Shown: one piece after another, positions 5,654 through 39,867 of the stretch
Numbering within the stretch: position 1 is the stretch's first letter
How the letters are laid out: each line of letters opens with the position of its first letter
NCBI GenBank assembly: GCA_041739675.1
Contig: JBGSNL010000041.1
Location: forward strand, 54-64,053
Source: a bacterium
GTDB taxonomy: Bacteria; UBA10199; 2-02-FULL-44-16; DYJF01
Reading direction: 5' to 3'
Length of the DNA: 64,000 nucleotides
Made by a program: the position numbers and the translations under genes
Notes under the pieces: generated by a model
Told to the model about the DNA's origin: nothing
The model's database searches: none
Seen by the model: only the letters and a program-made list of their open reading frames with translations

Positions 5654-6922
5654 TCATTTCAATGCGCGGCGCCCAATGTCTTTTCTGTAATGCGCGCCTT
5701 CCCACGATATCTTTTCCGCCGCATCGTATGCATTTTTTATCGCCGACGCAATGTCTGTCCCAAGTGCGGTTACGCCAATCACCCTTCCGCCGTTCGTCAG
5801 ATAATCGCCGTCTCTGAAAGTAGTGCCGGCATGGAACACTGTTACGTCCGGTTGCGATTCGGCATCTGCAAGGCCTCGGATGGGTTTTCCCTTTTCATAA
5901 TCTCCGGGATATCCCCCCGACGCCATGACAACGCAGACGGAAGGACGTTTGTCCCACTCGGGTTTCACCTTACCCAGTGTTCCGTCGATCGCGGCTTCGA
6001 TCAAATCTACAAGGTCCGTTTTCAGGCGCATCATTATAGGCTGCGTCTCCGGATCGCCGAAGCGGCAGTTGAACTCAAGCACATTGAAGCGGCCGTCTTT
6101 TATCATGAGGCCGGCATAAAGCACACCGGCGAAAGCTCTGCCCTCTGCCGCCATACCGCGCACGGCGGGTTTCATGACCTCGCTCATAACACGGTCGAAA
6201 ATATCCTGGGTCACAACGTGCGCGGGCGAATATGCCCCCATGCCGCCAGTGTTGGGGCCGCGGTCGTCGTCGAAGACCCGTTTGTGATCCTGCGACGTTG
6301 CAAGCGGAATCACGTTTTCCCCGTCGGATATGGCAATGAACGACGCCTCCTCACCCTCCAGAAATTCCTCGATCACGACTTTTTCTCCGGCGTCGCCGAA
6401 CGTGCGGTCCACCATGATGTCTTCGAGCGCTTCCGAGGCTTCAGATATGTTTTTGCAGATGATAACACCCTTGCCGGCCGCCAACCCGTCCACCTTGATG
6501 ACAATGGGCATTTGCTGTTTTAAAAGATATGTTCCCGCTTCTTTGACGTCGGTGAATGTCGCGGATTTGGCCGTGGGAATATTGTAGCGCTGGCAAAACT
6601 CCTTTGCAAAGACCTTGGAGCCTTCAAGTACGGCCGCTTCCTTTGTGGGGCCGAAAATCTTGAGCCCGCCCCGGCGAAAGATATCGACGATCCCCATCGT
6701 GAGGGGAACTTCAGGGCCCACGATCGTAAGATCGATCGCCTCTTTTTTTGCAAAATTCAGGAGGCCGTCGATATCTTCCGCCTTGACCTGAACGCATGTC
6801 GCATCTTTCGCAATGCCGGCATTTCCCGGCGCACAAAAGATCTGTTTCACGCGGGGGGATTTGGCGAGTTTCCAGACCAATGCGTGTTCACGTCCGCCGC
6901 TGCCGACGACGAGGATCTTCAT
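5654..6922 (-). CDS. purD: phosphoribosylamine--glycine ligase
   Basis: MKILVVGSGGREHALVWKL.. with an ATP-grasp domain. The start is taken at the second ATG, which is preceded by GGGAGG. Confidence 0.9.
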   Translation of the reverse strand: MKILVVGSGGREHALVWKLAKSPRVKQIFCAPGNAGIAKDATCVQVKAEDIDGLLNFAKKEAIDLTIVGPEVPLTMGIVDIFRRGGLKIFGPTKEAAVLEGSKVFAKEFCQRYNIPTAKSATFTDVKEAGTYLLKQQMPIVIKVDGLAAGKGVIICKNISEASEALEDIMVDRTFGDAGEKVVIEEFLEGEEASFIAISDGENVIPLATSQDHKRVFDDDRGPNTGGMGAYSPAHVVTQDIFDRVMSEVMKPAVRGMAAEGRAFAGVLYAGLMIKDGRFNVLEFNCRFGDPETQPIMMRLKTDLVDLIEAAIDGTLGKVKPEWDKRPSVCVVMASGGYPGDYEKGKPIRGLADAESQPDVTVFHAGTTFRDGDYLTNGGRVIGVTALGTDIASAIKNAYDAAEKISWEGAHYRKDIGRRALK

Positions 6923-7160
6923 TTTTTTCCTCCCGAACAGGCGCCTGAATAGACTCATTGTGATGGCGCTCTATACCTTTCGCCCAACTCTCAAATCAAG
7001 GGAAATGCGTCAAGAATCCGGCCATTTTCGGCCGATTATCACTTTGGATGCCGGTTTGATCGACCTACTTGTTTGATATTAAAAGACGTTTATTCGAGTT
7101 AAAGTGGCACATAAATTGCTCATCTAATGCTTGGAATTTAAAGCATATTTCGGAGGTTAT

Positions 7161-8263: not shown

Positions 8264-11200
8264 TTAGTGCGCACTTTCCTGGATTGATTCAACCGTGCCG
8301 TCATGGGAAATGACGGCGACTACGGTTAGAGCGGCGCCGCCCGTATCCACAACTTCAACGATGAGTTTGACGGGCCAGACGCCCAGTGCCTGCGCCGCCT
8401 CCCCTTTCGCCTGAAACTCGATTCCTTTTTGGTCCACCTTTTCTATCCAGTGATCCAGAGAACCGCCGTGCCTGGCAACTATGTGCGCCGTGATATTCAT
8501 CGCGTCGCCGGCGGGATCCGCGAAACTGAATTTCGCCCGTCCGCGACCATCTTCAAACTTGATGTCGCTTATCGTCCCCTGTGGCGGCTCGTTCTCGTTC
8601 CAGTAGAAAAATCCCATCGCGCCTATTTTTGAAGCACCCTGATTGATATCAAAAGCCGCAAAGAGATCGGGACCGCCAAAACCTTTTCCGTGAAAAAAAG
8701 TCACCGCATGCGGGTTAACAAAAGACAGGGGAGCGCTTGGCAGAACATCGTCAAGGGTAGATTGAGGTTCCACAAGTTTTGCCATCTGCCCCGCTTTTCC
8801 CAATTGCGGATTTTCCGTTCCGTGTGTGAGCTCGAATATGGAGCCGTCGTTGGATACGAAAAGATCCGCATCGGTTCCGTATCCTTTCAGAATGGCCAGC
8901 GGTATTTTCATCTCCGCGGCGATGCTCCGCGTGCAGCCCCAGCCCCCGCCGTTTTCCCGGCAAAACGCAAGTGAGGTCTTTTCATCGATCGTTGCGACAA
9001 CTCCGAAACCTTTTTTGCTCAAGGCAAACACGTCCGCGGAATCGATGGGAGCGGCTGCCTCCCAAAGCGGAATGAACAGATACTCGCTCACGCCCTCGGT
9101 CGCCGTTATGATATCCACGCCGAAACCGTATCTCGCCTTTTTGCCGGCGACGTTTGCGAGCGTGCAGACGACACCGCCGGCAATAGTATTTTTTTGGTCG
9201 CGCGCAGGCGCTATCGACGCAACTCTCTCCACCTTGCACGACTCGTTTGTCTCTCCCGCCGTGAGAGACCACGGCCGGCTATCGCCGGAGAGAAAGATGT
9301 CCGCGTTCAAATTACAACGGCCTTTGCCGGCCATGGAAAGCTGTGCTGAAATTTTGGGAAAGCGGTAATATCCCGCAGGCGATGACGCGAACATGTCCTC
9401 GCCGGACGTTACGGTGAGATTTTCAAGTTTGTCTCTTCTTTCAATCTGACAATGGCCGAACGCGATCTGCCCCTTTTCGAAGATCTTGCGCACGGGTATT
9501 GCGGCTATCCCCGCTGAATCGGAGTTGGCGCCCGAGACCAGAAGCCACGAATATTTGTGATCGCCCGGCGTGACCGAAGAGCTGTAAACCTCGGCCCACG
9601 GCAAAATCACGGCACGCGTTTTTTTGAATTCAAACAATCTTTCCAGTTTGGAGGCACCCTCTGTTGAGACTACGGCGATTCCTCCCCTGTCGCAATAATT
9701 GGGAATCAGGTCCGCGTCGTCGTCGGCGGCGTCCGAAGGATTAGCGGCGGCACAGCTCACCACGTTTGAGCCGGCAGGACACTGGAACGTTCCGGGGATG
9801 ATACAGGTTCCAACAGTGACCGGGCACGCCTGGCCCAGTTTTGCGACGTCGTCGACGACACCGTTGCAGTCGTCGTCCGAACCCATGTTTTCACAGGATT
9901 CGATGGACGGTTGTTTTGGAACGCAGCTCTGACTTTTTCCGCCGGCGCAATTTGCTATCGTGACCTCGCAGGCGCCGATGCCGCAGACGGCCTCGCCCAG
10001 ATCCTCGTCGACCTCGCCGTCGCAATCGTCGTCAAGATTGTTGCAAGTCTCTTCTTTTGCAAAGACGGTCTCGACGCACGCAAGATCGCCCTCCGGCATG
10101 CAGCGGTACTCGCCCTTTGCGCAAATTCCCGAAAGGGAAGAGAGGCTGCACGGCGTGCCCGCTACCGCCGCCAGGACATCGCAACTGCCGCATTCATTTT
10201 TGAGGCCGCCGCCGATCGGTTCGTGCGTGCAGCCGATGATAGTATCACATTCGTCCGTGGTGCATGAATTTCCGTCGTTGCAGGCGAGAACCGCCCCTCC
10301 CTTGCAGGAGCCTTCGAGACACAGGTCCGCGGCCGTGCACGCATTGCCGTCATCACAACTCGTCCCTTCGGGAACGGCATCGTGCGAGCAGACCCCCGAT
10401 TTGCAAAAATCTTTCGTGCAGGAATTTCCGTCGTCGGTGCATCTTGTGTTTTCCGAAAGATCGAACCGCGGGCTGCAGATCAAGGCCCCCACTCTATCGG
10501 GATCGCATTGCCAGACACCGGCGCCGCATACATCCGCTCCGGAAACGCGGCATCTGTCGCCTACTTTGGCCGGCAGATCGCCGCAGCCGCCGCAGACGTT
10601 TTTGACGCCTTCGTCTATCCCGCCGTCGCAGTCATTGTCGAGATTGTCGCACTTCTCGGGTTTCGGATCCATCCTCGGCGCCGAACAGACGACCGCGCCC
10701 TTCTTCGCATCGCAGACCGTCGTCCCTTTGCGGAGACACTCCCCCGTCTGCCCGTTGTCGCAGAGCTCCGCCAAACCCGCCGCGTCGTCGACTATTCCGT
10801 TGCAGTCGTCGTCTACACGGTTGCCGCAGATCTCCTGTTTGCCCGCGCCCGGAACCGCGTTGCATTTCAGAGACAGCTTATCCTCCGAACAGACAAAGAC
10901 GCCGGCCCGCTCGCAAAATCCCACGCCATTCTTGCAGGGCTTTGCCAGATTTTCAAAACCTTCGTCCACCCTGCCGTCACAGTCATTGTCTATATTTTCG
11001 CCGCAGAGCTCGGCCACGGGCTTTAGAGGAACGCATTTGTTCGCCTTACCGGAAAGGCAGGCCGGAACCGTCTGTCTGCACGCGCCTATTCCGCATGTCG
11101 TGTCGCCAAGACCGTTATCGATGACACCGTCGCAATCGTTGTCGCTCCCGTCGCAGATCTCCGCTTTTGACGCGCCGGCGACCGCGTCGCAGATAACTCC

Positions 11201-11713
11201 CGACTGATCCGGCGAGCAGCGCCTTTTTCCTTTCCCGACACACTGGCCGCGTCCGACAAAACAGGCGGAACCGATATCGAAACCGTCGTCCTCAATTCCA
11301 TTGCAATCGCTGTCTATGCCGTCGCACTTTTCAACCGCATCGGGATGAATGGCAGCATTCTTGTCGTCGCAATCCCCGCCGCAGGTCGTGTATCCGTCCT
11401 TGTCCTTGTCGAAACCCTCGTCTTTTTCGCCGTCGCAGTCGTCGTCCTCACCGTTGCAGAGTTCCACACGTTCGCCCGGCTTTATCATAACCTCGCAGAC
11501 CACCTGCCCGGAGGTGCAGTTCGTGAGGCCCCGCCCGCACGCACCTTTCAAACCGGTGTCGCAAGGTTTCACGCAGGAAACACATTTACCCAGCTTGGCA
11601 TCCCACAGAAAACCCGGCAGACACGTATCTTTAGACTGTGAATGGAGATCCGCAGCGGAGAGAAAAAATCCGGCGATCACAAAAAAAATAAGAGAGGTTC
11701 GTCTGATAGACAT
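8264..11713 (-). CDS. large secreted cysteine-rich repeat protein (CxxDDDCDGxxDEG putative metal-binding repeats) with an uncharacterised ~400-aa Cys-poor C-terminal domain
   Basis: 1149 aa with a signal peptide MSIRRTSLIFFVIAGFFLSAADLHS. It has at least 9 copies of C..(D/N)DDCDG..DEG modules, followed by a Cys-poor C-terminal region. Confidence 0.7.
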   Translation of the reverse strand: MSIRRTSLIFFVIAGFFLSAADLHSQSKDTCLPGFLWDAKLGKCVSCVKPCDTGLKGACGRGLTNCTSGQVVCEVMIKPGERVELCNGEDDDCDGEKDEGFDKDKDGYTTCGGDCDDKNAAIHPDAVEKCDGIDSDCNGIEDDGFDIGSACFVGRGQCVGKGKRRCSPDQSGVICDAVAGASKAEICDGSDNDCDGVIDNGLGDTTCGIGACRQTVPACLSGKANKCVPLKPVAELCGENIDNDCDGRVDEGFENLAKPCKNGVGFCERAGVFVCSEDKLSLKCNAVPGAGKQEICGNRVDDDCNGIVDDAAGLAELCDNGQTGECLRKGTTVCDAKKGAVVCSAPRMDPKPEKCDNLDNDCDGGIDEGVKNVCGGCGDLPAKVGDRCRVSGADVCGAGVWQCDPDRVGALICSPRFDLSENTRCTDDGNSCTKDFCKSGVCSHDAVPEGTSCDDGNACTAADLCLEGSCKGGAVLACNDGNSCTTDECDTIIGCTHEPIGGGLKNECGSCDVLAAVAGTPCSLSSLSGICAKGEYRCMPEGDLACVETVFAKEETCNNLDDDCDGEVDEDLGEAVCGIGACEVTIANCAGGKSQSCVPKQPSIESCENMGSDDDCNGVVDDVAKLGQACPVTVGTCIIPGTFQCPAGSNVVSCAAANPSDAADDDADLIPNYCDRGGIAVVSTEGASKLERLFEFKKTRAVILPWAEVYSSSVTPGDHKYSWLLVSGANSDSAGIAAIPVRKIFEKGQIAFGHCQIERRDKLENLTVTSGEDMFASSPAGYYRFPKISAQLSMAGKGRCNLNADIFLSGDSRPWSLTAGETNESCKVERVASIAPARDQKNTIAGGVVCTLANVAGKKARYGFGVDIITATEGVSEYLFIPLWEAAAPIDSADVFALSKKGFGVVATIDEKTSLAFCRENGGGWGCTRSIAAEMKIPLAILKGYGTDADLFVSNDGSIFELTHGTENPQLGKAGQMAKLVEPQSTLDDVLPSAPLSFVNPHAVTFFHGKGFGGPDLFAAFDINQGASKIGAMGFFYWNENEPPQGTISDIKFEDGRGRAKFSFADPAGDAMNITAHIVARHGGSLDHWIEKVDQKGIEFQAKGEAAQALGVWPVKLIVEVVDTGGAALTVVAVISHDGTVESIQESAH

Positions 11714-11777: not shown

Positions 11778-13352
<1,575 letters not shown>

Positions 13353-17500: not shown

Positions 17501-17540
17501 CAAAAACAAAAGGCGAAGGGGGTGCCTTCGCCTTTTCAAA
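17501..17540. terminator. bidirectional intrinsic terminator (ggcgaagg / ccttcgcc stem with A/T runs on both sides)
   Basis: The hairpin is at 17512-17534, with TTTT downstream on the plus strand and TTTTGTTTTT on the minus strand. It lies just 3' of the giant minus-strand ORF. Confidence 0.65.
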
Positions 17541-17556
17541 TCTATTGAAGTTTCAA

Positions 17557-20500
17557 CTACTCCATGCCCGATATTTTCGCCAGCAACTCAAGGGTCTTTG
17601 TTTCGTTCATAAAGATGCCGAACAGTGACCGTGTGACACCGTCCAGATCGGGATACCTTACCGAGATCGTGCCGTCTTCGTTCTCAACCGCATGAGCCGA
17701 AGTTCCGATGAGGTAATGATCAGTCGTTGCAGATGAACACAGCGCAACATCGTCTGAATCGCTGTAACCCTCGATCATCGTAAAGAGATCCGTATTCGGA
17801 CCTTCACCGTCAAATATCGGTTGCAGCTTTGCAATCGAATTCAGCGTCTTCTGCAACATCACGGTCTCGATTTTTTCGATGAGGACTGCAGCTTGATCTT
17901 CAGTCATATATGAAAAGCCGAGTTCATCATTCGTAAATTCTTCCAGAATTTCCGCCACAGGCGTTCCGGATTCGAGCTCTTCCATTATGATATCTCTCCT
18001 GCCCTCTTCCTCCTCGCTGAACACGACCTTTCTCGAAAGGCCGGACATGAAATTCTCCATCTTCGAAAGGACCGTGTTTATGAAGAGGGCCGGCTCGTCT
18101 GCGATTCCTTCTGCCTCCGCTTGGGCGGAGTACTGAAGCATCTTTATCTGAAGAACGCCCATGAGCTGCTCTCTTGCCTTGAGCGCGTCTTCCGCGATCA
18201 CACTGTCCACATACGCCCTTGCCGCATATATCTCCTCTGTCGATGCGCTTGTATCAGAATCAATCACTGTGGCGGGATCGATCTGTGCCGACCATGCCGC
18301 CTGTTCCATTTCGGAATTGCCGTTTAAGTGCGCGCGATAGACACCAACCGCCCACGCATCCTTCATGAGCTGGGGAAGATCAGGGCTGTCCATCTCTATC
18401 ATCGATTTCACAGTCTTCAAGCTCTGCAATCCAAAAAGGGCCCAACCTGCCACTGGAATCGCTGTTTCGGACGCAACAGTCAAAGAGCTAAGTGCGGCGC
18501 GCGTGAGTAAACCGGCTGATCCGGCGGCTACACGATCCATAAACATTTTGGTCAGCGATTTCGCCGCGGCGCGGCCAAGCTGCGGCATTGCCCATCCGCC
18601 CACCGCGAAGCGTGTTCCGCCGAATCTCGCTAAATCACCGACATAACCGCCGCCGTTCTCGCCGAACAGCGAATGGACAACACGATCATATATATCCATA
18701 CCGACGATTGCCGTCGGCAGGCCGCGGACCAATGACATCCATGACTCTCCGCCCACCGTTCTTTCAATAAAGTCGGTGAACGTCCTGGCGCCCACGTTAG
18801 CAGCGGCCGTCGTCGTAACATGCATGCCGCCTAAAACCGTCGCCATCGACGCGATCGGGCCCATGTGAGTTGCCTGTGCAATCGCTCCAAAGACCTCGCC
18901 TGCTGCGAAGCCAAGTCCTATGCCGCCCAAGTTCTGCCCAAATCCTTTTGCAAACTCGCCGACGGCGCTTACTGCGCGACGGCCCACGTTGGCAATGCTC
19001 CGACCGATATCGGTCGTCTCGAAGAAATCCACCCAGCTCGCCGCAAGTTCCGCAGCGGGAGGAAGACCGGAAAAATTCCTGCTGAATACTCCAGCATCTA
19101 TAGCTCGACCAAAAGCCCGCTGAGTTACAGTATCGGCATGTCTCCTGACTCTCGCAAAGTCTGTACGACTCCTGAGACGCTTCGCCTCGTCCACAATCTG
19201 TTTGAGTTCATGCTCAATCCTATTTATATTTCTCCAATGTTCACCAATCCACTTATCCCCGTGCACATCTATATCCGTTAACTGGGGGCTCAATTCCGCC
19301 TGTTCAATCATTTTTTTCAGCCGCTCAATTTCTTCATATTCTTGAGTTAATTGATCCCCTAACCGTGTGACCTCTGCCAACGTTGCATCGAGAGTTGCCC
19401 TTGTCTGCCTATCTTCGGGGGTGTCAACCCTGCCGTAAACCGTGCTGGGGTTTTGGGGTCCCGCAGGCGGCGTGCCGCCGGTGGCGCCGTTGCCATGAGT
19501 TCCGCCGAACGGGCGGTCGATGGTCTGCCCTTTCTTTATTTCGCTCTCTAAGACACCTTCCAACCGATCATCTACAAAAGGCCAAGAGTAAGTATCGTTC
19601 AGTGTATTTCGAATTATGCTTGCGACTTCTGCCCTTTCACCATTGCTTAAAGAGGAAGCATGCAAACTTAATGCTATGCGTTCAAGTCGTGCTGCGCTCT
19701 CTTCAGTACGCGGATGCCGATCAGAACTACAAAGCATGCCATTGTCGTGCTCTTGCCAAATATAGGTACGACTCGCCGGCAATCTAGAGCCAAGCTGTTC
19801 CCTTATTTCATTTATCTCCTCTAACAGCTGGGTGAAGGTGGGTCCCATGGTTTGTCTCTCATCAGGATTATCAACCCTGCCGTAAACTGTGCTGGGGTTT
19901 TGGGGCCCCGCAGGCGGTGTGCCGCCGGTGGCGCCGTTGCCGTGGCTCCCGCCGAACGGGCGGTCGATAACAGTCGTCTGCGCGCCTGCAGCAGGCTGCG
20001 TGATAGCCCCTTCAACTTTCGCCTTGAGTTGCTCCAAATACTCGCCGGTCAGGCCGGAGCTTTCCCCTATTGAAATCACGGCCCGAAGTTCGCTTATCGT
20101 GCGCCCGACTGCTGACTGGCCGGCATACACCGCGTCCTCACGAAACATCCGCACATTGGAGTTGGCGGTTTCCCGTGCCGCCTCTTTTTCAACGAACGCA
20201 AGATGTTCACGCATTGTAACGAGAACTCCGCCCAGTCTTTCAACCTCCATCGACAGATCGGTAAGAGTGCTGGTATTGTCAATCGTCTGCGCAATCTTCG
20301 TTTGTAATCGGTCCACCTGATCGCCGGTCAGACCGGCCGTTTTCCCTATTTTGAGCACATCTTGAATTTTGTAGATGGTGTCGCGAACTCCATCTTCAGC
20401 GTGTTGCATATCTTCTTCATTAGGCATTCCCTCACCAGAGTTGCCCGTCGTTCCCTGCGCTATATAACGTTCCCACCTAGCCTGAATTTTGCGCTTGTCT

Positions 20501-21468
20501 ACGAGAACTTTGCCCAGTGTTTCAACCTCCGCTGACAATATGTCAAACGCTTGGTCAGAGAGAATCCGTTCGAACGCTATCAGAGGAAGAGCATTCGGTT
20601 GACCAATTACCCTAAGCGTTGGATGTGAAGCGGCATCCCTCACAAGTTCAGCCGTCCCATCGACAACCATGCTCGGATCTTTTACAAGTTTCTTCGCAAC
20701 CTTAGCGGCATTGGGCGCTATACGCGGATCTGTCACTATAGTGACACGCACCCCTCTGGAAAGCGCCTCACCTATCTCTGAAGCTGAAACAGCCCCGCCT
20801 TTATAATAGATCATCTCGCCATGCGTATCTTCGGCGATCTTCACCATCAACGAGCGCCCGCCCTCTATGACTTCCCAGCTATCGACAGACGTGTCGACAA
20901 AGACCACTAAATCCTGCTTTGCAATTCCCCACTCTGCGGCATTTCTGGAGACTATACCGGCGGTCTTCACATTGGTAAATCCAAGCTCCCTTGCGATCTG
21001 GGGTATCCACTCATACGCCGCGCCGATTCCATCGGACGTTCCGCCGATGACGTACATCGTGTTATTGCCGTCCGCCGCTATCTGCGCCCTGAGATAGGCC
21101 TTCACCACCTCCGGATTTTCATAGCCGAGCCCTGAATATCCACCGAGAACGCGAACTTTGTATCCCGAAGCGTTGTAGACCAGTTCATCATATGTAACCA
21201 CTCTTGTGCCGGTGCCCTGAAGCTTCCCTAGATATGCTGTGAACATGGCGTCACGCGCCACCCTGCGCTCATCCATAGGAGTACTACCGCCGCCTCCACC
21301 TGCAAAATATGGATGACTAAGGTGAGAGCCACCAGAAATATCCCACGGACTATCATCCACCCTGCAAACCTCAAGGGCAGAGCCCGACGCTTGGTCGGCT
21401 GCCTCCCACGGTAAATGATAATAGTCTGCAGGTCTATTCGGATTGACAGTTCTTGCTCCTGCGAACAT
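17557..21468 (-). CDS. giant multidomain protein: N-terminal LOG/SLOG-like Rossmann domain, modular coiled-coil repeats, Gly-rich hydrophobic C-terminal region
   Basis: - Start: the chosen start at 21468 (MFAGARTVNPNRP..) is preceded by AAGGGAG at the usual spacing; the ORF track extends to 21537.
- N-terminal domain: a LOG-like motif pair (..YVIGGTSDGIGAAYE.. and ..YKGGAVSASEIGEAL..) that resembles GGxGxMG and PGGxGTxxE.
- Internal repeats: IG(K/E)xxGLTG modules and two IDRPFGG(S/T)HGNGATGGTPPAGPQNPSTVYGRVD modules.
- C-terminus: many GxxxG stretches.
- Composition: visibly lower GC than the flanking DNA. Confidence 0.6.
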   Translation of the reverse strand: MFAGARTVNPNRPADYYHLPWEAADQASGSALEVCRVDDSPWDISGGSHLSHPYFAGGGGGSTPMDERRVARDAMFTAYLGKLQGTGTRVVTYDELVYNASGYKVRVLGGYSGLGYENPEVVKAYLRAQIAADGNNTMYVIGGTSDGIGAAYEWIPQIARELGFTNVKTAGIVSRNAAEWGIAKQDLVVFVDTSVDSWEVIEGGRSLMVKIAEDTHGEMIYYKGGAVSASEIGEALSRGVRVTIVTDPRIAPNAAKVAKKLVKDPSMVVDGTAELVRDAASHPTLRVIGQPNALPLIAFERILSDQAFDILSAEVETLGKVLVDKRKIQARWERYIAQGTTGNSGEGMPNEEDMQHAEDGVRDTIYKIQDVLKIGKTAGLTGDQVDRLQTKIAQTIDNTSTLTDLSMEVERLGGVLVTMREHLAFVEKEAARETANSNVRMFREDAVYAGQSAVGRTISELRAVISIGESSGLTGEYLEQLKAKVEGAITQPAAGAQTTVIDRPFGGSHGNGATGGTPPAGPQNPSTVYGRVDNPDERQTMGPTFTQLLEEINEIREQLGSRLPASRTYIWQEHDNGMLCSSDRHPRTEESAARLERIALSLHASSLSNGERAEVASIIRNTLNDTYSWPFVDDRLEGVLESEIKKGQTIDRPFGGTHGNGATGGTPPAGPQNPSTVYGRVDTPEDRQTRATLDATLAEVTRLGDQLTQEYEEIERLKKMIEQAELSPQLTDIDVHGDKWIGEHWRNINRIEHELKQIVDEAKRLRSRTDFARVRRHADTVTQRAFGRAIDAGVFSRNFSGLPPAAELAASWVDFFETTDIGRSIANVGRRAVSAVGEFAKGFGQNLGGIGLGFAAGEVFGAIAQATHMGPIASMATVLGGMHVTTTAAANVGARTFTDFIERTVGGESWMSLVRGLPTAIVGMDIYDRVVHSLFGENGGGYVGDLARFGGTRFAVGGWAMPQLGRAAAKSLTKMFMDRVAAGSAGLLTRAALSSLTVASETAIPVAGWALFGLQSLKTVKSMIEMDSPDLPQLMKDAWAVGVYRAHLNGNSEMEQAAWSAQIDPATVIDSDTSASTEEIYAARAYVDSVIAEDALKAREQLMGVLQIKMLQYSAQAEAEGIADEPALFINTVLSKMENFMSGLSRKVVFSEEEEGRRDIIMEELESGTPVAEILEEFTNDELGFSYMTEDQAAVLIEKIETVMLQKTLNSIAKLQPIFDGEGPNTDLFTMIEGYSDSDDVALCSSATTDHYLIGTSAHAVENEDGTISVRYPDLDGVTRSLFGIFMNETKTLELLAKISGME
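19424..19521. repeat. 98-bp direct repeat copy 1 inside the giant ORF (about 93% identical to copy 2)
   Basis: tcaaccctgccgtaaaccgtgctggggttttggggtcccgcaggcgg... It encodes the IDRPFGGSHGNGATGG.. module. Confidence 0.85.
19871..19968. repeat. 98-bp direct repeat copy 2 inside the giant ORF
   Basis: The same sequence with about 7 substitutions; the two copies are 447 bp apart. Confidence 0.85.
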
Positions 21469-21608
21469 ATTTGCTCCCTTCGTTTTAAGATGTCCCCCGT
21501 ACCCGCCCCCGCGGATACTCAACCTAATTATCGTCACATATCAAAAAAAGTTGCGGCTTATTTTTTTTTTTTGAATTTGATAACTTCTTGAATTATATGG
21601 CGTTTTTA

Positions 21609-21938
21609 TCAATGTGCAGGGTGGGCAATGGCGGCGGACTTGGCTTCGTGGTCGTCGATACGGGCCCCGATAGCGTCGATTTTTTCGGAAAGCCGGGATT
21701 CAGTCTCTTCAATTCGTTTCTCCAACTTGCAGATATCCCCTTTGAGCTCGTACTTCAAGTCTTGCATATCATTCTTGAGTCCCTTGCCTAGATCCTGCAT
21801 TTCCTCTCGGAGACCGGTTGCTGCAGCCTTTGCCGATGATTCGACGAGATCTTTGAGATTCTCGAACTGAATCTCAAGCAGGGATTCAAGTCTGCCACTA
21901 GTGAGAATTTCGTCTTTTCTGGATGCGCTCTGTTTCAT
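21609..21938 (-). CDS. small coiled-coil protein (109 aa), hypothetical
   Basis: Heptad-rich (..LKDLVESSAKAAATGLREEMQDLGKGLKNDMQDLKYELKGDICKLEKRIEETESRLSEKIDAIG..). Co-directional with and upstream of the giant ORF. Confidence 0.45.
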   Translation of the reverse strand: MKQSASRKDEILTSGRLESLLEIQFENLKDLVESSAKAAATGLREEMQDLGKGLKNDMQDLKYELKGDICKLEKRIEETESRLSEKIDAIGARIDDHEAKSAAIAHPAH

Positions 21939-21949
21939 AATATCAACGG

Positions 21950-22129
21950 CTAGAATGCCGTCGCCTCCCTTGTCGTTTCCTCTCTAATCTCCGCCATTTT
22001 CTTGAGTATGAGGTCCAATCCTGCGCTTATCTCTTCAAGAAGGCGTGTGTTATGCTGCTTAATTGTCTCTCCCTTCCTGAGGTCGTTGAGATCGGTTCTG
22101 ACCATCGCTTTTTTCGTTTTTTTCAGCAT
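21950..22129 (-). CDS. small ORF (59 aa) with strong RBS, hypothetical coiled-coil peptide
   Basis: Not in the ORF track because it is under 60 aa. AGGAGG lies 6 nt upstream of the ATG. Sequence MLKKTKKAMVRTDLNDLRKGETIKQHNTRLLEEISAGLDLILKKMAEIREETTREATAF. Its stop is 11 nt before the next start. Confidence 0.4.
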   Translation of the reverse strand: MLKKTKKAMVRTDLNDLRKGETIKQHNTRLLEEISAGLDLILKKMAEIREETTREATAF

Positions 22130-22320
22130 GCGCGCCTCCTTATCATGGCAAAAATCTCGCTGGCAAGATTAATGTCACGACAAACTGATTTTCTTCATAG
22201 CAATGAACATGCCAATATCCATTACGTTGCAGCACATTGATATTTAAGGATTTCCGTTTTTGAATAAAAATCAAAATTGCATGAAATTCGTACAGTGTGA
22301 CCGGAAATGCTGCAAGTGCG

Positions 22321-22373
22321 GGGGACACTTCTCGTGTTCACGAGGAGCCCACGCGAAAATGAGAAGTGTCCCC
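22321..22373 (-). terminator. 13-bp inverted-repeat hairpin immediately 3' of the MBL-fold hydrolase gene (terminator-like, no clear T-run)
   Basis: ggggacacttctc ... gagaagtgtcccc, with an inner ctcgtg/cacgag mini-hairpin. Confidence 0.4.
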
Positions 22374-22386
22374 ACCTCTTCAAATA

Positions 22387-33964: not shown

Positions 33965-35359
33965 TTACTTTTTTGTGAGTTTCATGATTTCGGGGGCATC
34001 ATCCACATCGACGGGATAGTCCCCCGTGAAACACGCGTCGCAGAACCACTCATTGCCATTTACCTTTTCGAACCAGTAGAGCGCCTCTTTTGAAAGATAG
34101 CCCAGCGAATCCGCCCCGATGTATTTTCTTATCTCTTCAATTGTGTGGGAGCTTGCGATCAGCTCTTCTCTCGTCGGCGTGTCGATGCCGTAAAAGCAGG
34201 GCCATGAAGTCGGCGGAGAGGAGATGCGCATGTGCACCTCTTTCGCTCCCGCATCTTTGAGCATCTTGACGATCTTGAGCGATGTCGTGCCGCGGACGAT
34301 CGAATCGTCGATGCAGACGACCCTCTTCCCCTTCAAAAGTTCGCGGATGGGGTTGAGCTTGACCTTGACGCCGAAATGCCTGATCTCTTTTTTGGGCTCG
34401 ATGAACGTTCTTCCTACGTAATGATTTCTGATGAGCGCCATCTGGAAAGGGATTCCCGATTCCTCGGAATATCCTATCGCCGCGGGGACCCCGGAATCCG
34501 GAACCGGCACCACCATGTCCGCTTCGACCGGATGCTCGCGCGCGAGCTGTCTGCCGAAACCGGTTCTGATCGTGTAGACGTCTCTGCCGAAGATGTTCGA
34601 ATCGGGACGCGCAAAATAAATATATTCAAAAATGCACTGCGCCCTCTTGGTCTCCTTCTCGAAGGGCTTGATGGAACGCATCCCGCACGAATCGAAGATG
34701 AGAATCTCACCGGGCTCCACCTCTCTTATGAACTTGGCGCCTAAGAGATCCAGCGCACATGTCTCGGAGACGACTACGTGGGCCATGCCGCCGCCGTTGA
34801 CCTGCAGTTCGCCCAAGGCAAGCGGACGGATCCCCTTGGGATCCCGGGCGGCGATCATTTTGTCTTCGGAGATGAAGACAAAACAGTACGAACCCTTGAT
34901 CTTTTTGAGAGCGCCTATCAATTTATCTTCAAGCGTGCCTTCACGGCTTTTCGCGACGAGATGCATTACGACTTCAGAATCGACGGAGGCGTTGAAGATG
35001 GAGCCCTCTTTTTCGAGCTCCTTCCTGAGCTTCCTGTAGTTAGTAAGATTGCCGTTGTGCGACACGGCCAGCCATCCACCCGAATAGTTCACAACGAAGG
35101 GGTACGCGTTCTTGAGCGTCGATGCGCCGGACGTGGAATATCTCACGTGGCCTATCGCATTGTGGCCGGGAAGCTTAGCGATCACGTCACGGGTGAAAAT
35201 ATCTGAGATGTGGCCCATCGCGCGGTGCTGATACAACGTTGTGCCGTCAGATGAAACTATACCGCCGCTCTCCTGCCCGCGGTGCTGCTGGGCGTAAAGG
35301 CAGAGGTAGGCCAGGTTCGAAGCTTCAGGATGATTTGCAATTCCCACTATTCCGCACAT
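33965..35359 (-). CDS. purF: amidophosphoribosyltransferase
   Basis: N-terminal MCGIVGI nucleophile plus a PRTase domain. Confidence 0.9.
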   Translation of the reverse strand: MCGIVGIANHPEASNLAYLCLYAQQHRGQESGGIVSSDGTTLYQHRAMGHISDIFTRDVIAKLPGHNAIGHVRYSTSGASTLKNAYPFVVNYSGGWLAVSHNGNLTNYRKLRKELEKEGSIFNASVDSEVVMHLVAKSREGTLEDKLIGALKKIKGSYCFVFISEDKMIAARDPKGIRPLALGELQVNGGGMAHVVVSETCALDLLGAKFIREVEPGEILIFDSCGMRSIKPFEKETKRAQCIFEYIYFARPDSNIFGRDVYTIRTGFGRQLAREHPVEADMVVPVPDSGVPAAIGYSEESGIPFQMALIRNHYVGRTFIEPKKEIRHFGVKVKLNPIRELLKGKRVVCIDDSIVRGTTSLKIVKMLKDAGAKEVHMRISSPPTSWPCFYGIDTPTREELIASSHTIEEIRKYIGADSLGYLSKEALYWFEKVNGNEWFCDACFTGDYPVDVDDAPEIMKLTKK

Positions 35360-35364
35360 TTTAT

Positions 35365-37626
35365 TTACTCTCCCAACATTTTAGGCAACGCACGGCTCCA
35401 CTTCCCGTGGAGGTCCGCGCAATCGACGCACAGTATATTGTTCACGGCGAGCATTCTTCCGCCGACGCGGCCGATCACCTTCGCCGGCGCGCCCTCTTCT
35501 TTCGCGATTGTCAGCATCATGTCGGCGTTTTCAGGTGAGACCGAAATCAATATGCGCGATGCGCTCTCGCCGAAAAGGAGGCAATCCGGGCGCATGTCTT
35601 CTTCAAGAGTGATTGTCGCGCCCAATAGCCCGCCCGGCCTTGTGATGGAACATTCCATCAGCGCCACGGCAAGCCCGCCCTCGGAAACATCATGGGCGGA
35701 TTTGACAAATCCCCGTGAGATTCCGGTGCGGCAGACTTTCTGCACCGCCTTCTCGCGTTTGAAATCAAGTTTGGGCGGCATGCCCACCGTCTTTTTGTGA
35801 ACGACTGAGAGATACTCGCTGCCGCCGATCTCGGCTTCGTTCTTGCCGAGCAGTATGATCACGTCTTTGTCGTCTTTCCACCATGACGTGCAGCGGCGAT
35901 CGACATCATCGATCACGCCCACCATCGCCACGACCGGGGTGGGATAAATAGCGCTCCCCTTCGTTTCGTTGTAAAAGCTCACGTTGCCGGAAACTATGGG
36001 CGTTTGGAATTGTCTGCAGGCCTCCGCCAATCCTTCGACGGCGCGCGCGAATTGCCACATGATCTCCGGTTTTTCCGGATTGCCGAAATTTAAGCAGTCG
36101 GTGACGCCCACGGGTGTGGCGCCGGTGCACGAGAGATTTCTGGCTGCTTCCGCAACGGCCAGCGCCGCGCCCGTCCACGGATCGAGATAACAGAACCGGC
36201 TGTTGCAATCCGACGCAAGCGCCAATCCCTTTTTGATATGCTTTGTCTTCGCCTCTTCTTCGGTCGTGATTTTAGGAATGAACGGCTTGATACGGATCAC
36301 GGCTGCGTCTCCGCCTGGCAGCACCACTGTGTTGGTCATGACCATGTGGTCGTACTGCTCCCAGACCCACCTCTTGCGCGCAAGATTGGGAGAGGTCATG
36401 AGGCGGATGAGCACATCGTTCATATCGCCGGGGATAGGCACGGACTTGAGATCGAGCTTCTGGACCTCGCGCTGCCATGAGGGCTCTTTCGTCGGCCGCT
36501 CGTAGAGCGGGGCATCATGGACGACGGGGCCAACCGGGAGATCGACAACCTTCTTTCCCTGATAATTTATTCTCACGCGCCCATCGTCCGTGACACGGCC
36601 GACGATCGCGCAATCAAGATCCCACTTTTCAAAAATATCCATCACATCTTTTTCGCGCCCTTTTTTCGCGACGAGCAGCATGCGCTCCTGCGACTCGGAG
36701 AGCATGATCTCGTATGGGGTCATCTCAGTTGCGCGTAGCGGAACCTTTTCAAGATCCACTTCCATCCCGCTTCTTGCGCGCGACGCCATTTCGAACGTGG
36801 AACACGTGAGCCCGGCCGCGCCCATGTCCTGAATGCCGACGATCGCGTCGGTGCCCATGAGCTCAAGGCAGGCCTCCATCAAAAGTTTTTCCGTGAAGGG
36901 ATCGCCCACCTGAACAGTTGGGCGTTTCTCCTCTGATGATTCGTCGAATTCGTCGGAGGCCATCGTGGCGCCGTGGATGCCGTCGCGCCCCGTTTTGGAG
37001 CCGACGTAGATCACCGGGTTCCCGATGCCAACCGCTTTGCCAAGGTAGATCCTCTTCGCGTCCATGATTCCTAAAGTGAACGCGTTGACTAGAATGTTTC
37101 CGTTGTAGCATTCGTCGAAAAAGGTTTCGCCGCCAACGGTGGGGATTCCCATCGTGTTGCCGTAGCCGCCTATGCCGCCCACCACACCTTTGACAAGATA
37201 CGGCATCCTCGGCGCGTCGATTGCGCCGAAACGGAGCGAATTCAAATTTGCGATCGGGCGCGCTCCCATCGTGAAGATGTCGCGCATGATGCCGCCAACG
37301 CCTGTTGCCGCCCCCTGATATGGCTCGATGAACGAGGGATGGTTGTGCGATTCCATCTTGAAGGCTATCGCCAGCCCGTCGCCAATGTCTATGATACCGG
37401 CGTTCTCGCCCGGCCCCTGCAACACGTTCGGCCCCTCCGTGGGGAACTCCTTGAAATGGACTCGCGAGCTTTTGTAGGAGCAATGCTCGGACCACATCAC
37501 GGAAAAAATTCCCAGCTCCGTAATGTTTGGCTCACGGCCGATCGCGTCCACGACGCTCTTATATTCCTCCGGCGTGAGACCGTGGTCCTCGACTATCTGC
37601 GGTGTAACTTTTGTATCCTGGTTCAT
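35365..37626 (-). CDS. purL: phosphoribosylformylglycinamidine synthase subunit PurL
   Basis: AIR-synthase-related tandem domains. Its ATG overlaps the purQ stop (ATGA); the longer alternative starts at 37644. Confidence 0.85.
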
Positions 37627-38321
37627 TTGTTTTTCGCCCACCATGAAATTATGGATTCAAATATCTTGATTCCTTCTCTGTTGCCCAAAATCGTCTCGGA
37701 GCATCTTTCTGGATGCGGCATCAGGCCGCAAACGTTGCCCTTCTCGTTTGTCACGCCCGCCACGAACTCCATTGAACCGTTGGGGTTGGAATCTTCGCCC
37801 AGATCGCCGCTCTCATCGCAATAGCGGAAGAGGACCTGATTTTGCCCGGTGATCTTGGTGAGCGCTTTCTTCTCCATGAAGAAGTTGCCGTCCATGTGCG
37901 CGATGGGGATTTTCAGCGTCTGTCCCTGGCGGCACTCGGACGTGAAAGGGCTCGCCGTATGCACCACTTTTATGAAAACTTCCTTGCAGATGAACTTGAG
38001 CGATGAGTTCCGCATCAGTGCGCCGGGGAGTAGGCCCGCCTCCTGCAAAATTTGAAACCCGTTGCAGATGCCCAGAACCAGGCCGCCCTTCTCCGCAAAA
38101 TCCTTGATGGAGGTCATCACCGGCGAACGCGCGGCCATGGCGCCGGAGCGGAGATAATCGCCGTATGAGAATCCGCCCGGGAGAACAAGGCAGTCCGCGC
38201 CCTTGAGGTCGGTGTCCTTGTGCCAGATGAAAAAAGCCTCATGGCCCAAAACGTCGCCCAACACGTGGCGGCAATCGTCGTCGCAGTTGCTTCCGGGAAA
38301 TACTATTATTCCAAATTTCAT
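37623..38321 (-). CDS. purQ: phosphoribosylformylglycinamidine synthase subunit PurQ (glutaminase)
   Basis: GATase1 with the LGICNGFQ active-site Cys. Confidence 0.9.
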
Positions 38322-38574: not shown

Positions 38575-39867
38575 CTAACGAAAGACTCGTTTGAAAATTT
38601 CGTCCACATGGACGAAATGTCGGTTCATATCGAAAAGTTTATCCAGCTCTTCCTGCTGCAGATGTTTTTTCACCTGCGGATCCTTTGAAATCAGCGATGC
38701 GAAATCCTCGCCTTTTTCCCACGCCTGCATAGCGGCCGATTGAACGATCTTGTACGCATCTTCGCGGCTTAAGCCCGCCTGCGTCAGCGCGAGCAGAACG
38801 TCCTGCGACGCGTAAAGGCCGCGGGAGCGCGCCATATTTTCCTTCATGCGCTCCGGAAAAACGTCAAGACGCTCGATGACTCCTGCAAGGCGCGTCAGCA
38901 TGAAATCGACAAGGATCGTGGAATCGGGCGCGATGACGCGCTCGACGGACGAATGGGAAATATCGCGCTCGTGCCAGAGGGCCACGTTTTCAAATGCGGC
39001 CAAAGCGTTCGCGCGAACGATTCTTGCAAGCCCCGTGATATTTTCGCACAGGATGGGATTTCTTTTGTGAGGCATGGCCGACGAACCTTTTTGCCCCTTG
39101 CCGAAAGGTTCAGCCGCCTCGAAGACCTCCGTGCGCTGAAGATGTCTTATCTCCACCGCCACCTTCTCGATTGAAGATGCGATCCCCGCCAGAACCGCAA
39201 AATAGTGGGCGTGCCGGTCGCGCTGGACGATCTGGTTCGAGACGGGATCGGGCTTCAAGCCCAGATTCTTGCAGACATAGGCTTCGACCGACGGCGGGAT
39301 GTGAGCAAAAGTTCCGACGGCGCCGGAGATCTTGCCGACCGCGATATCATTTATAGCATGACTGAGGCGATCGAGATGTCTTTCAAATTCGCCGTGCCAT
39401 ATCGCGAGCTTGAGGCCGAAAGTGATGGGCTCGGCATGAACGCCGTGGGTGCGCCCGATCATCGGCGTCATCTTATATTTTACCGCCTGCGATTTCAGGA
39501 TGCGGCACATCTCTTTCAAATCTTCCGCGATGATTTTGCCTGCGGCTGCGAGCTGGCAGGCGAATGCGGTATCTAAAAGATCAGACGATGTGAGGCCCTG
39601 ATGGATATATCTTGAATCGGGGCCGACAGCTTCATTGATTGTGGTGAGAAACGCGATGACGTCGTGTTTGACTTCGGCTTCTATCTCGGCCATCCGCTTC
39701 AGATCGAATGCGGCCTTTTTCTTGATCGTATCCAGCGCGTCTTTCGGGATTTTGCCTTCTTTGGCCCAACCCTCGCACGCAAGAAGTTCGATCTTAAGCC
39801 ACAGATCGCACTTATAGTTCTCTTCCCAGATTGATGACATTTCAGGGCGTGAATAACGCGGGATCAT
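38575..39867 (-). CDS. purB: adenylosuccinate lyase
   Basis: 430 aa; fumarase/lyase family signature (..SSAMPHKRNP..). Confidence 0.9.
   Translation of the reverse strand: MIPRYSRPEMSSIWEENYKCDLWLKIELLACEGWAKEGKIPKDALDTIKKKAAFDLKRMAEIEAEVKHDVIAFLTTINEAVGPDSRYIHQGLTSSDLLDTAFACQLAAAGKIIAEDLKEMCRILKSQAVKYKMTPMIGRTHGVHAEPITFGLKLAIWHGEFERHLDRLSHAINDIAVGKISGAVGTFAHIPPSVEAYVCKNLGLKPDPVSNQIVQRDRHAHYFAVLAGIASSIEKVAVEIRHLQRTEVFEAAEPFGKGQKGSSAMPHKRNPILCENITGLARIVRANALAAFENVALWHERDISHSSVERVIAPDSTILVDFMLTRLAGVIERLDVFPERMKENMARSRGLYASQDVLLALTQAGLSREDAYKIVQSAAMQAWEKGEDFASLISKDPQVKKHLQQEELDKLFDMNRHFVHVDEIFKRVFR

Follow-up and report, generated by a model that had tools for sequence, protein, structure and literature searches.

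A 1303-residue mosaic bacterial protein with a predicted SLOG-superfamily head and an architecture of its own

Domains of the SLOG superfamily are involved in the binding of nucleotides and other ligands, in nucleotide processing, and in sensing within conflict systems (PMC6459960, in its summary of Burroughs et al. 2015). The described systems closest to the protein reported here are the LSDAT/TRPM group (the MHR1/2 region of TRPM channels and the Pfam families LSDAT_prok, PF18171, and LSDAT_euk), the LOG/PpnN/TM1055 group (Lysine_decarbox, PF03641), and ThsA of Thoeris together with other effectors that carry a SLOG sensor. The protein is encoded in a stretch of 64,000 nucleotides (nt), hereafter the window (positions 54 to 64,053 of contig JBGSNL010000041.1, GenBank assembly GCA_041739675.1), from a bacterium of the GTDB lineage UBA10199, 2-02-FULL-44-16, DYJF01. 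A previous sequence-only reading had proposed here a low-GC, three-gene cassette for conflict or nucleotide signaling. What we found is one intact mosaic protein of 1303 amino acids (aa), in which a head that almost certainly belongs to the SLOG superfamily is followed by a long stalk and a C-terminal module (C-module). Both the superfamily and the design logic are known; the SLOG family and the architecture of the protein are new. The parts of the protein are the following (P and L numbers denote individual proteins and loci or contigs, respectively).

21277 to 21468, minus strand: leader or junction module, residues 1 to 64 (MxxGA[RK] ... YYxLxW ... PSxWDxxxG....PYF, then a Gly run), recognized at the N-termini of P0049 and P0052.
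20584 to 21276, minus strand: predicted SLOG-superfamily (LSDAT/TRPM-like) Rossmannoid domain, residues 65 to 295, with the loops GGYSGLGY (109 to 116), GGTSDGIG (142 to 149), GIVS (171 to 174) and GGAVSASE (224 to 231, with the invariant E231), and W198.
19984 to 20583, minus strand: tandem helical modules H1 and H2, residues 296 to 495, seen in the repeat alignment, in a DNA repeat (D3), and in homologues in P0052 and P0087/P0115.
19849 to 19983, minus strand: linker L1, residues 496 to 540 (IDRPFGGSHGNGATGGTPPAGPQNPSTVYGRVD), 90% identical to L2, its motif kept in P0087/P0115 and P0111.
19534 to 19848, minus strand: module H3, residues 541 to 645, charge-rich and called helical from its composition only, partly covered by alignments with P0111 and P0087.
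19399 to 19533, minus strand: linker L2, residues 646 to 690 (IDRPFGGTHGNGATGGTPPAGPQNPSTVYGRVD), 73% identical to residues 111 to 136 of P0111.
19072 to 19398, minus strand: module H4, residues 691 to 799, 41% identical to residues 71 to 195 of P0049 (E 6e-20), with a weak HR1_TOCA match.
17560 to 19071, minus strand: C-module, residues 800 to 1303, homologous to P0006 and P0026/P0114.

Like TRPM channels, the window protein is very large, opens with a SLOG head and continues as a long non-enzymatic region, and several members of the family of its head give weak matches to the LSDAT_prok profile. However, identity to this group is only 11 to 15%, the window protein itself has no Pfam match, its downstream modules are unrelated, and it has neither TRP-type transmembrane (TM) helices nor a demonstrated channel. 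The likeness to LOG, PpnN and TM1055 lies in the Gly-rich loops, which occupy equivalent positions, and in the glutamate of the ...GG....E motif, which is kept as E231, whereas the PGGxGTxxE motif is degenerate (KGGAVSASE) and there is no profile match. ThsA and similar effectors also fuse SLOG to a non-SLOG output region, following a "ligand-sensing head plus effector" logic, but neither SIR2, Macro nor any other known effector domain is present in the window protein, which also lacks a ThsB/TIR partner and a PADLOC match, and its locus lies outside a defense island.

The sequence-only reading had assigned the N-terminal domain to LOG/SLOG on the basis of two Gly-rich loops, and the SLOG part of this assignment holds. 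Searches of Pfam, NCBIfam, PADLOC and PHROGs with the full-length protein gave nothing significant, and Pfam contained no SLOG match at E 1 or better. The AlphaFold model of the head, built from an alignment of seven copies (A1), reaches a pLDDT of 88.4 and a pTM of 0.88 and has the three-layer alpha/beta Rossmannoid fold of the SLOG type. In structural comparisons the model scored 14.8 with TM1055, 14.3 with the MHR1/2 region of TRPM5 and TRPM2, 14.1 with a MoCo carrier protein, 13.5 with a PpnN-like protein, 12.5 with LOG, 12.2 with DprA, 12.1 with ShosA, 11.3 with YpsA and 9.5 with the ThsA SLOG domain bound to 3'cADPR. Foldseek retrieved TRPM2/4/5/8, PpnN and the MoCo carrier at a probability of 1.00 (TMq 0.41 to 0.57), and ADPR-bound TRPM2 is, like the 3'cADPR-bound ThsA domain, among the structural matches. 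The longest alignments (180 to 183 residues) are those with TRPM channels and PpnN; therefore, the modeled head appears structurally closest to the TRPM-channel/LSDAT and PpnN branch.

The relatives of the head carry a weak SLOG signal at the profile level. LSDAT_prok (PF18171) is matched at E 4.7e-4 in three of seven close copies, the window copy being without a match, and among the distant stand-alone members the matches reach E 1.8e-7 for LSDAT_prok (weak matches in 3 of 17) and E 1.9e-4 for LDcluster4, the latter with 17.7 bits where the cutoff is 26.3. All of these matches fall below the curated thresholds of the SLOG families in Pfam. By BLAST, residues 120 to 253 align with residues 501 to 622 of P0003 (E 2e-4), a protein whose record carries a faint LSDAT_prok match, and we take this stretch of P0003 to be its LSDAT_prok region. 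Both Gly-rich loops singled out in the earlier reading are invariant in the family: over seven close and 17 diverse members, G110, G142/T144/G147/G149, G224/G225 and E231 do not vary, so that the Gly-rich loops and the acidic residue of the C-terminal GG...E loop that characterize SLOG domains are all present. The window copy retains 17 of the 17 invariant columns of the 17-member alignment, including the glutamate of GGx[VI][SA]xxE (E231), and the retention of every family-invariant residue argues for a predicted ligand pocket that works. The resemblance to the LOG motifs proper fared worse, since neither the Pro nor the second Gly of PGGxGTxxE is present. KGGAVSASE and GGTSDGIG stand against PGGxGTxxE and GGGxxGxMG, Pfam gives no LOG (PF03641) match, and the comparison of the head profile with one LOG sequence was not significant (hhalign probability 0.2%). 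Neither the head alignment nor the C-module nor the stalk gave a meaningful match in sequence and profile searches of PDB. The opposite outcome, a tape-measure protein in place of any SLOG match, was also considered and is not what we found. The structural matches of the model, together with the weak profile signal in the relatives, leave us highly confident that the head is a SLOG-superfamily domain, and its family is a new SLOG clade for which neither Pfam nor NCBIfam has a dedicated model.

An exhaustive phmmer search with residues 104 to 1303 against 1.84 billion cluster representatives (50% identity) yielded 113 proteins at E 1e-3 or better, about 105 of which match the SLOG-like domain only. 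The first homologue search had found four non-self proteins sharing only residues ~66 to 297 (47 to 62% identity). P0002 has a signal peptide and the domain twice in tandem, P0003/P0004 carry it after Zeta_toxin/AAA_33 and LSDAT_prok domains, and P0005 carries it after a cytidylyltransferase-like (NMNAT-like) domain. Apart from this domain, P0003/P0004 and P0005 have nothing in common with the window protein, having signal or TM N-termini, kinase or nucleotidyltransferase partners, and the domain in C-terminal or tandem position. Most of the family are stand-alone proteins of 200 to 260 aa. In the 30 longer members, the partner domains are Zeta_toxin/AAA_33 (four), LSDAT_prok (three), and CTP_transf_like, DUF6829, nSTAND_NTPase5 and LDcluster4 (one each); the zeta-toxin kinases, the NMNAT-like domain and LSDAT_prok hint at nucleotide chemistry. 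A signal- or TM-like N-terminus is present in 17 of 22 long members, in 10 of 82 short ones and in none of 18 control proteins of the window. To our knowledge, an exported SLOG domain is unusual.

The scan of GTDB species genomes with the SLOG-like domain gave 28 loci. They include Oligoflexia, Acidobacteriota, Spirochaetota, Bdellovibrionota, Verrucomicrobiota and Planctomycetota (among the latter Rhodopirellula baltica), as well as Accumulibacter, Azohydromonas, Zoogloea, Shewanella, Saccharibacteria and Chloroflexota. Their contexts are heterogeneous, and clustering the neighbors across the 28 loci revealed no recurrent partner gene. An integrase adjoins P0002, and the neighborhood of P0005 includes a glutamine deamidase gene. 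At L006 (6286 to 11948), a stand-alone SLOG-like gene is part of a tight run with genes for a CotH kinase, a 393-aa protein, a GNAT protein and a GntR/UTRA regulator, and this run is convergent with a canonical LOG (Lysine_decarbox/LDcluster4) gene.

The C-module has a different set of relatives. It is 49% identical to P0006 over 517 aa (E 2e-133) and 28% identical to P0026/P0114 over 409 aa, while the heads of these proteins are entirely different: that of P0006 is a TM helix followed by a Clp D1-like AAA+ domain (phmmer against PDB, E 1e-10), and P0114 (1916 aa) has a transglutaminase core, with the C-module downstream. Therefore, a single C-module is found behind three unrelated heads, namely SLOG, Clp-like AAA+ and transglutaminase. 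P0006 and P0114 are uncharacterized metagenomic proteins and therefore say nothing about function. Within the module, residues 830 to 1020 (18409 to 18981, ~190 aa) are Gly/Ala-rich and moderately hydrophobic, a much shorter region than the ~450-aa hydrophobic C-terminus of the earlier description, and residues 1076 to 1303 are acidic (20% D+E). Four moderately hydrophobic segments occupy conserved positions in the three C-modules, the last one reaching 1.58 to 1.73 on the Kyte-Doolittle (KD) scale in P0006 and P0114. The relatives of the C-module and of the stalk were found by the exhaustive phmmer run alone. A word-index search with the C-terminal 973 aa returned only the protein itself, and another with the C-module alignment (A2) missed even P0001, the deposited version of the window protein, in that database, a sensitivity failure of the method. 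Scans of JGI metagenomes with the C-module and the linker motif gave no confirmed loci, and no relatives of the head, the C-module or the linker turned up in scans of viral sequences.

Copies of the leader, the helical modules and the DRPFGGSHGNG-TGGTPPAGP linker are spread over three or four further orphan proteins. Stalk residues 688 to 802 align with P0049, and H1/H2 align with the repeated modules of P0052 and P0087/P0115; the leader motif PSxWDxxxG....PYF recurs internally in P0087/P0115. The H1/H2 unit begins with LSxEVExLGxVLV and ends with IGxxxGLTGxxxxxLxxKxxxxI, and the two copies (residues ~310 to 400 and 404 to 490) are 37% identical over 86 aa (E 2e-14, z 19 against shuffles). L1 and L2 (IDRPFGG[ST]HGNGATGGTPPAGPQNPSTVYGRVD) are 90% identical over 40 aa and correspond in the DNA to 124-nt copies of 86% identity, 447 nt apart, one of them at 19845 to 19968. 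Both kinds of recurring module recognized in the earlier reading are thus real, with two copies each only, and H3 and H4 are not further copies of H1/H2, to which they show no significant similarity (for H3, a Smith-Waterman z of 0 or less). The description of this region as coiled coil came down to sub-threshold Pfam matches (ZapB, E 0.017). The linker DR[PL][FL]GGSHGNG.T[GS]GTPPA is ~70 to 90% conserved in P0087, P0115 and P0111, which lie on unrelated contigs, against 30 to 40% for the surrounding modules; a linker so much better conserved than its surroundings suggests a site of specific processing, modification or binding. Two other readings of these motifs were considered and rejected: a double-glycine leader at the LSxEVExLGG module starts, of which the spacing does not fit, and an RTX repeat, of which the pattern GGxGxD is not that of GGSHGNG.

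Two of the loci with stalk relatives deserve a brief description; their contexts have nothing in common with the window. At L030 (10001 to 11500), frameshifts divide one gene into P0049 and P0111, with the linker motif continuing in a third frame, and they mark either a pseudogene or indel errors of long reads; the gene lies beside a 23S_rRNA_IVP gene in an island of tiny open reading frames (ORFs). Immediately upstream of P0115 (L031, 8276 to 11564) are genes for a PhdYeFM antitoxin and a DUF6036 protein; P0115 also has a DUF7790 protein before it and a radical-SAM gene and a type II secretion cluster after it.

The start of the window protein had to be decided between two positions. On the minus strand the frame is open from 17557 to 21537, and the ATG at 21468 gives 1303 aa, the length claimed in the sequence-only reading. 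Public gene calls (NCBI P0001, 1239 aa, and Logan contig L032) begin at M65 instead. We preferred the upstream ATG because of the N-terminal homology and the spacing of the ribosome-binding sites: leader residues 1 to 58 match the extreme N-termini of P0049 (MFAGARTVNP against MLSGARTVNP) and P0052 (MLSGAK), and GGGAG precedes this ATG at 5 nt, whereas the GGAGG ahead of M65 is 16 nt away. We therefore accept the 1303-aa version, with which the deposited protein lacks the conserved 64-aa leader.

Around the big gene, the following additional features were recorded.

21609 to 21938, minus strand: acidic 109-aa ORF, its membership in a unit with the big gene unproven; matches of coiled-coil type due to composition only (e.g., CCDC90-like, E 1.8e-4); singleton cluster.
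21950 to 22129, minus strand: 59-aa ORF, its membership in the unit likewise unproven; AGGAGG ribosome-binding site; match to phrog_14622 (E 3.1e-5), a family without assigned function.
22188 to 22215, minus strand: weak sigma-70-like promoter match (9/12) upstream of the 59-aa ORF, by consensus only.
17508 to 17536, minus strand: intrinsic terminator-like hairpin closing the big ORF, with a 12-bp stem, 6 GC pairs and a T-rich tail.

Both small ORFs exist as previously described, upstream of the big gene and co-directional with it; AGGAGG stands 6 nt before the ATG of the 59-aa ORF, and 11 nt separate this ORF from the next start. The tight spacing claimed for the unit ends there, since a 140-nt AT-rich gap lies between the stop of the 109-aa ORF and the big ORF. 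The bidirectional terminator was confirmed in that the hairpin (17536 to 17508) is strong and flanked by a T run on one side and an A run on the other, and alr begins directly after it. The low GC content of the cassette applies to only part of it: the stretch with the small ORFs and the intergenic DNA (21538 to 22313) has 43.7% GC, while the big ORF, with 53.2%, does not differ from the window (53.8%). GC at third codon positions is 0.52 to 0.60 in the cassette against 0.62 to 0.69 in six neighboring genes, and the codon usage is mildly atypical; the big gene was probably acquired horizontally.

Any function beyond the head is a matter of inference, and with a family this rare comparative genomics does not resolve it. 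The reading that we prefer, as a possibility held tentatively, is that of a nucleotide sensor or processor contained in a single polypeptide, whose output would be the association with, or perturbation of, a membrane. The big protein would act alone, as a sensor-to-output device: the SLOG head would bind, and possibly hydrolyze, a putative ligand of ribonucleotide type (in the class of ADP-ribose, NMP or (p)ppGpp), and its ligand state would control the C-module via the long, presumably helical stalk. Such a device would work like TRPM2, in which SLOG gates a pore, or like ThsA, in which it gates an effector, and the sensor model is proposed because SLOG domains sense or process nucleotides, with these two proteins as precedents. 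Head swapping suggests that the C-module would be a common output or localization part and the heads alternative regulatory or enzymatic inputs, and membrane association would be the most likely output because the Gly/Ala-rich hydrophobic segments of the C-module are conserved. No partner gene is conserved, either across the 28 loci or in the comparison of small-ORF homologues, which agrees with a protein that acts alone.

Several observations weigh against this proposal. Hydropathy in the window protein peaks at 1.15 to 1.33 over 19 residues (KD), below the usual level of a TM helix, and residues 800 to 1030 have 6 GxxxG motifs against 4.8 in composition-preserving shuffles and 12 small-xxx-small motifs against 10.8. 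The region had been described as packed with Gly zippers; with counts no higher than those of the shuffles, this enrichment was rejected and the protein does not fall into the glycine-zipper membrane-active class. The AF2 model of the C-module (from an alignment of three sequences) is all-alpha with a pLDDT of 38, and nothing beyond the head is confidently modeled; the C-terminus is at most a putative membrane-active region. The C-module is common to only two other lineages, thin evidence for constraint. PADLOC gave no match, there is no defense-island context, and the flanking genes are housekeeping ones. Most members of the family are stand-alone proteins of ~220 aa, a form that fits an enzyme as well as a sensor. 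An extended version of the proposal seems unlikely to us, namely that the protein would represent an undescribed class of single-polypeptide "head-swapping" devices, combining a membrane-acting C-module and a leader, stalk and linker set with alternative heads, in which the SLOG version would be a TRPM-channel analogue with a nucleotide gating a membrane-permeabilizing output, and the DRPFGGSHGNG-TGGTPPAGP linker would serve for processing or for the binding of a partner.

A constant C-module with variable heads is also what effector families with a common delivery module look like, and the protein might be a secreted or injected mosaic effector or toxin, in which the heads would be payloads (the SLOG head degrading nucleotides like LOG/PpnN) and the leader and/or the C-module would serve for export, translocation or anchoring. 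This is doubtful, in spite of the leader common to three proteins, the signal- or TM-like N-termini of most long SLOG-like relatives (17 of 22), the zeta-toxin kinases and the NMNAT-like domain among the fusion partners, the integrase and glutamine deamidase genes next to P0002 and near P0005, and the presence of relatives in predatory or epibiotic lineages (Oligoflexia, Bdellovibrionota, Halobacteriovoraceae, Saccharibacteria). The window protein has no signal peptide, as already noted in the sequence-only reading (N-terminal hydropathy peak of 0.75), and among the window genes examined there is no secretion system, chaperone or immunity gene, a terminator and alr following directly. Pfam detects no known trafficking or pre-toxin domain, and in classical polymorphic toxins the variable toxin part is C-terminal, the opposite of the order found here, where the C-terminus is constant and the head variable; the protein does not fall into that class. 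Less probable still is the original idea of a three-gene nucleotide-centered conflict system, with the 59- and 109-aa proteins as regulators or antitoxin-like partners of a SLOG effector. The co-directional ORFs, the strong ribosome-binding site of the 59-aa ORF, the 11-nt gap between the small ORFs, the promoter-like site upstream and the terminator downstream, the stretch of lower GC (43.7%), and the recurrence of the three-ORF arrangement in an independent raw-read assembly (Logan contig L032) would all suit such a unit. However, a gap of 140 nt precedes the big ORF, and the small ORFs have no homologue in the loci of relatives that were compared (these include L030 and L031, with the leader, helical and linker relatives, and exclude the loci of the two C-module relatives), so that the proposed check for a conserved three-gene arrangement came out negative. 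The neighbors of the relatives are unrelated, and Pfam, NCBIfam, PADLOC and PHROGs gave nothing significant for either small ORF. In PADLOC the big protein matched 0 families and the 109-aa ORF had compositional matches only, membership in known antiphage systems (Thoeris, CBASS and others in PADLOC) was not found, and the cassette has no signal-generating enzyme such as a nucleotide cyclase, TIR or SMODS-type protein. The conflict system as first proposed is therefore not supported, and the two upstream small ORFs are not demonstrably part of a unit with the big gene.

The abundance of purine genes in the window, the presence of PpnN and LOG among the structural matches and the stand-alone relative that adjoins a canonical LOG gene (L006) could also be taken to indicate a housekeeping scaffold or enzyme, a LOG/PpnN-like nucleotide phosphoribohydrolase head acting in purine homeostasis and tethered to a large structural protein. 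Against this, which we consider very unlikely, stand the missing Pfam LOG match, the hhalign result, the loss of the Pro and second Gly of PGGxGTxxE, the sparseness of the family (113 cluster representatives in 1.84 billion), the atypical codon usage and the lack of conserved synteny. Very unlikely as well is the view that the gene is a lineage-specific ORF in decay or without function, or what remains of a structural gene such as that of a phage tape-measure protein. The extreme rarity, the frameshifts in one relative (P0049 and P0111 at L030), the low AF2 confidence for the C-module and the weak match to TMP_3 (E 0.25) are in its favor, but the 3.9-kb frame is intact, no invariant SLOG residue has been lost, and the C-module matches a distant protein at 49% identity over 517 aa. 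Furthermore, the head, C-module and linker have no viral relatives, no phage genes occur among the window genes scanned, and no PHROG match is significant, the best one (E 0.008) being to a family without assigned function, so that the protein does not fall into the phage tape-measure or tail class.

The single-polypeptide sensor reading, if true in that the head controls a membrane-acting C-module, would provide a simple bacterial model of LSDAT ligand gating and a new type of effector for nucleotide-sensing immunity. Independently of it, a SLOG clade that is structurally clear and captured by no profile library, with ~105 cluster representatives in more than ten phyla, has been added, and the swapped modules (the C-module behind three heads and the linker conserved in divergent proteins) are concrete parts that can be tested. 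The practical value today is mainly a corrected annotation, of the start codon and of the domain identity, and a candidate for experiment.

The genes on both sides of the cassette are those claimed earlier: alr, mlaE, mlaF, mlaD and purH on one side, and an MBL-fold hydrolase, cstA and thiS/G/H/C on the other. The further window genes scanned (glnE, purD, genes for a purF-type amidophosphoribosyltransferase and a purL-type FGAM synthase, purB, pgi, a catalase gene, polA and a folC-like ligase gene) indicate core chromosome, and none of the ~25 window genes scanned belongs to a phage, a secretion system or a defense system. The window contains no tRNA gene, and Rfam detected no riboswitch or other RNA in the cassette. 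The host genome is a database singleton, in which even PurH and MlaF form one-member clusters at 90% identity.

Purine-biosynthesis genes are unusually abundant in the window (5654 to 6958, 11778 to 13352, 33965 to 35359, 35365 to 37644 and 38575 to 39867), the set comprising purD, purH, the purF-type amidophosphoribosyltransferase, the purL-type FGAM synthase and purB; we note this richness beside a SLOG protein of the nucleotide-binding type. An inverted repeat at 22314 to 22380, with 32-nt arms (78% complementary) and a 3-nt loop, lies just past the stop of the MBL hydrolase gene and is separated from the 59-aa ORF by ~180 nt of AT-rich DNA; it is probably the terminator of the MBL gene and the upstream edge of the cassette. 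Between purD and purH, an ORF of 1149 aa (8264 to 11713, minus strand), which has no NCBIfam match, encodes the second large uncharacterized protein of the window, with six MopE-type putative Cu-binding motifs and a Dicty_CTDC repeat.

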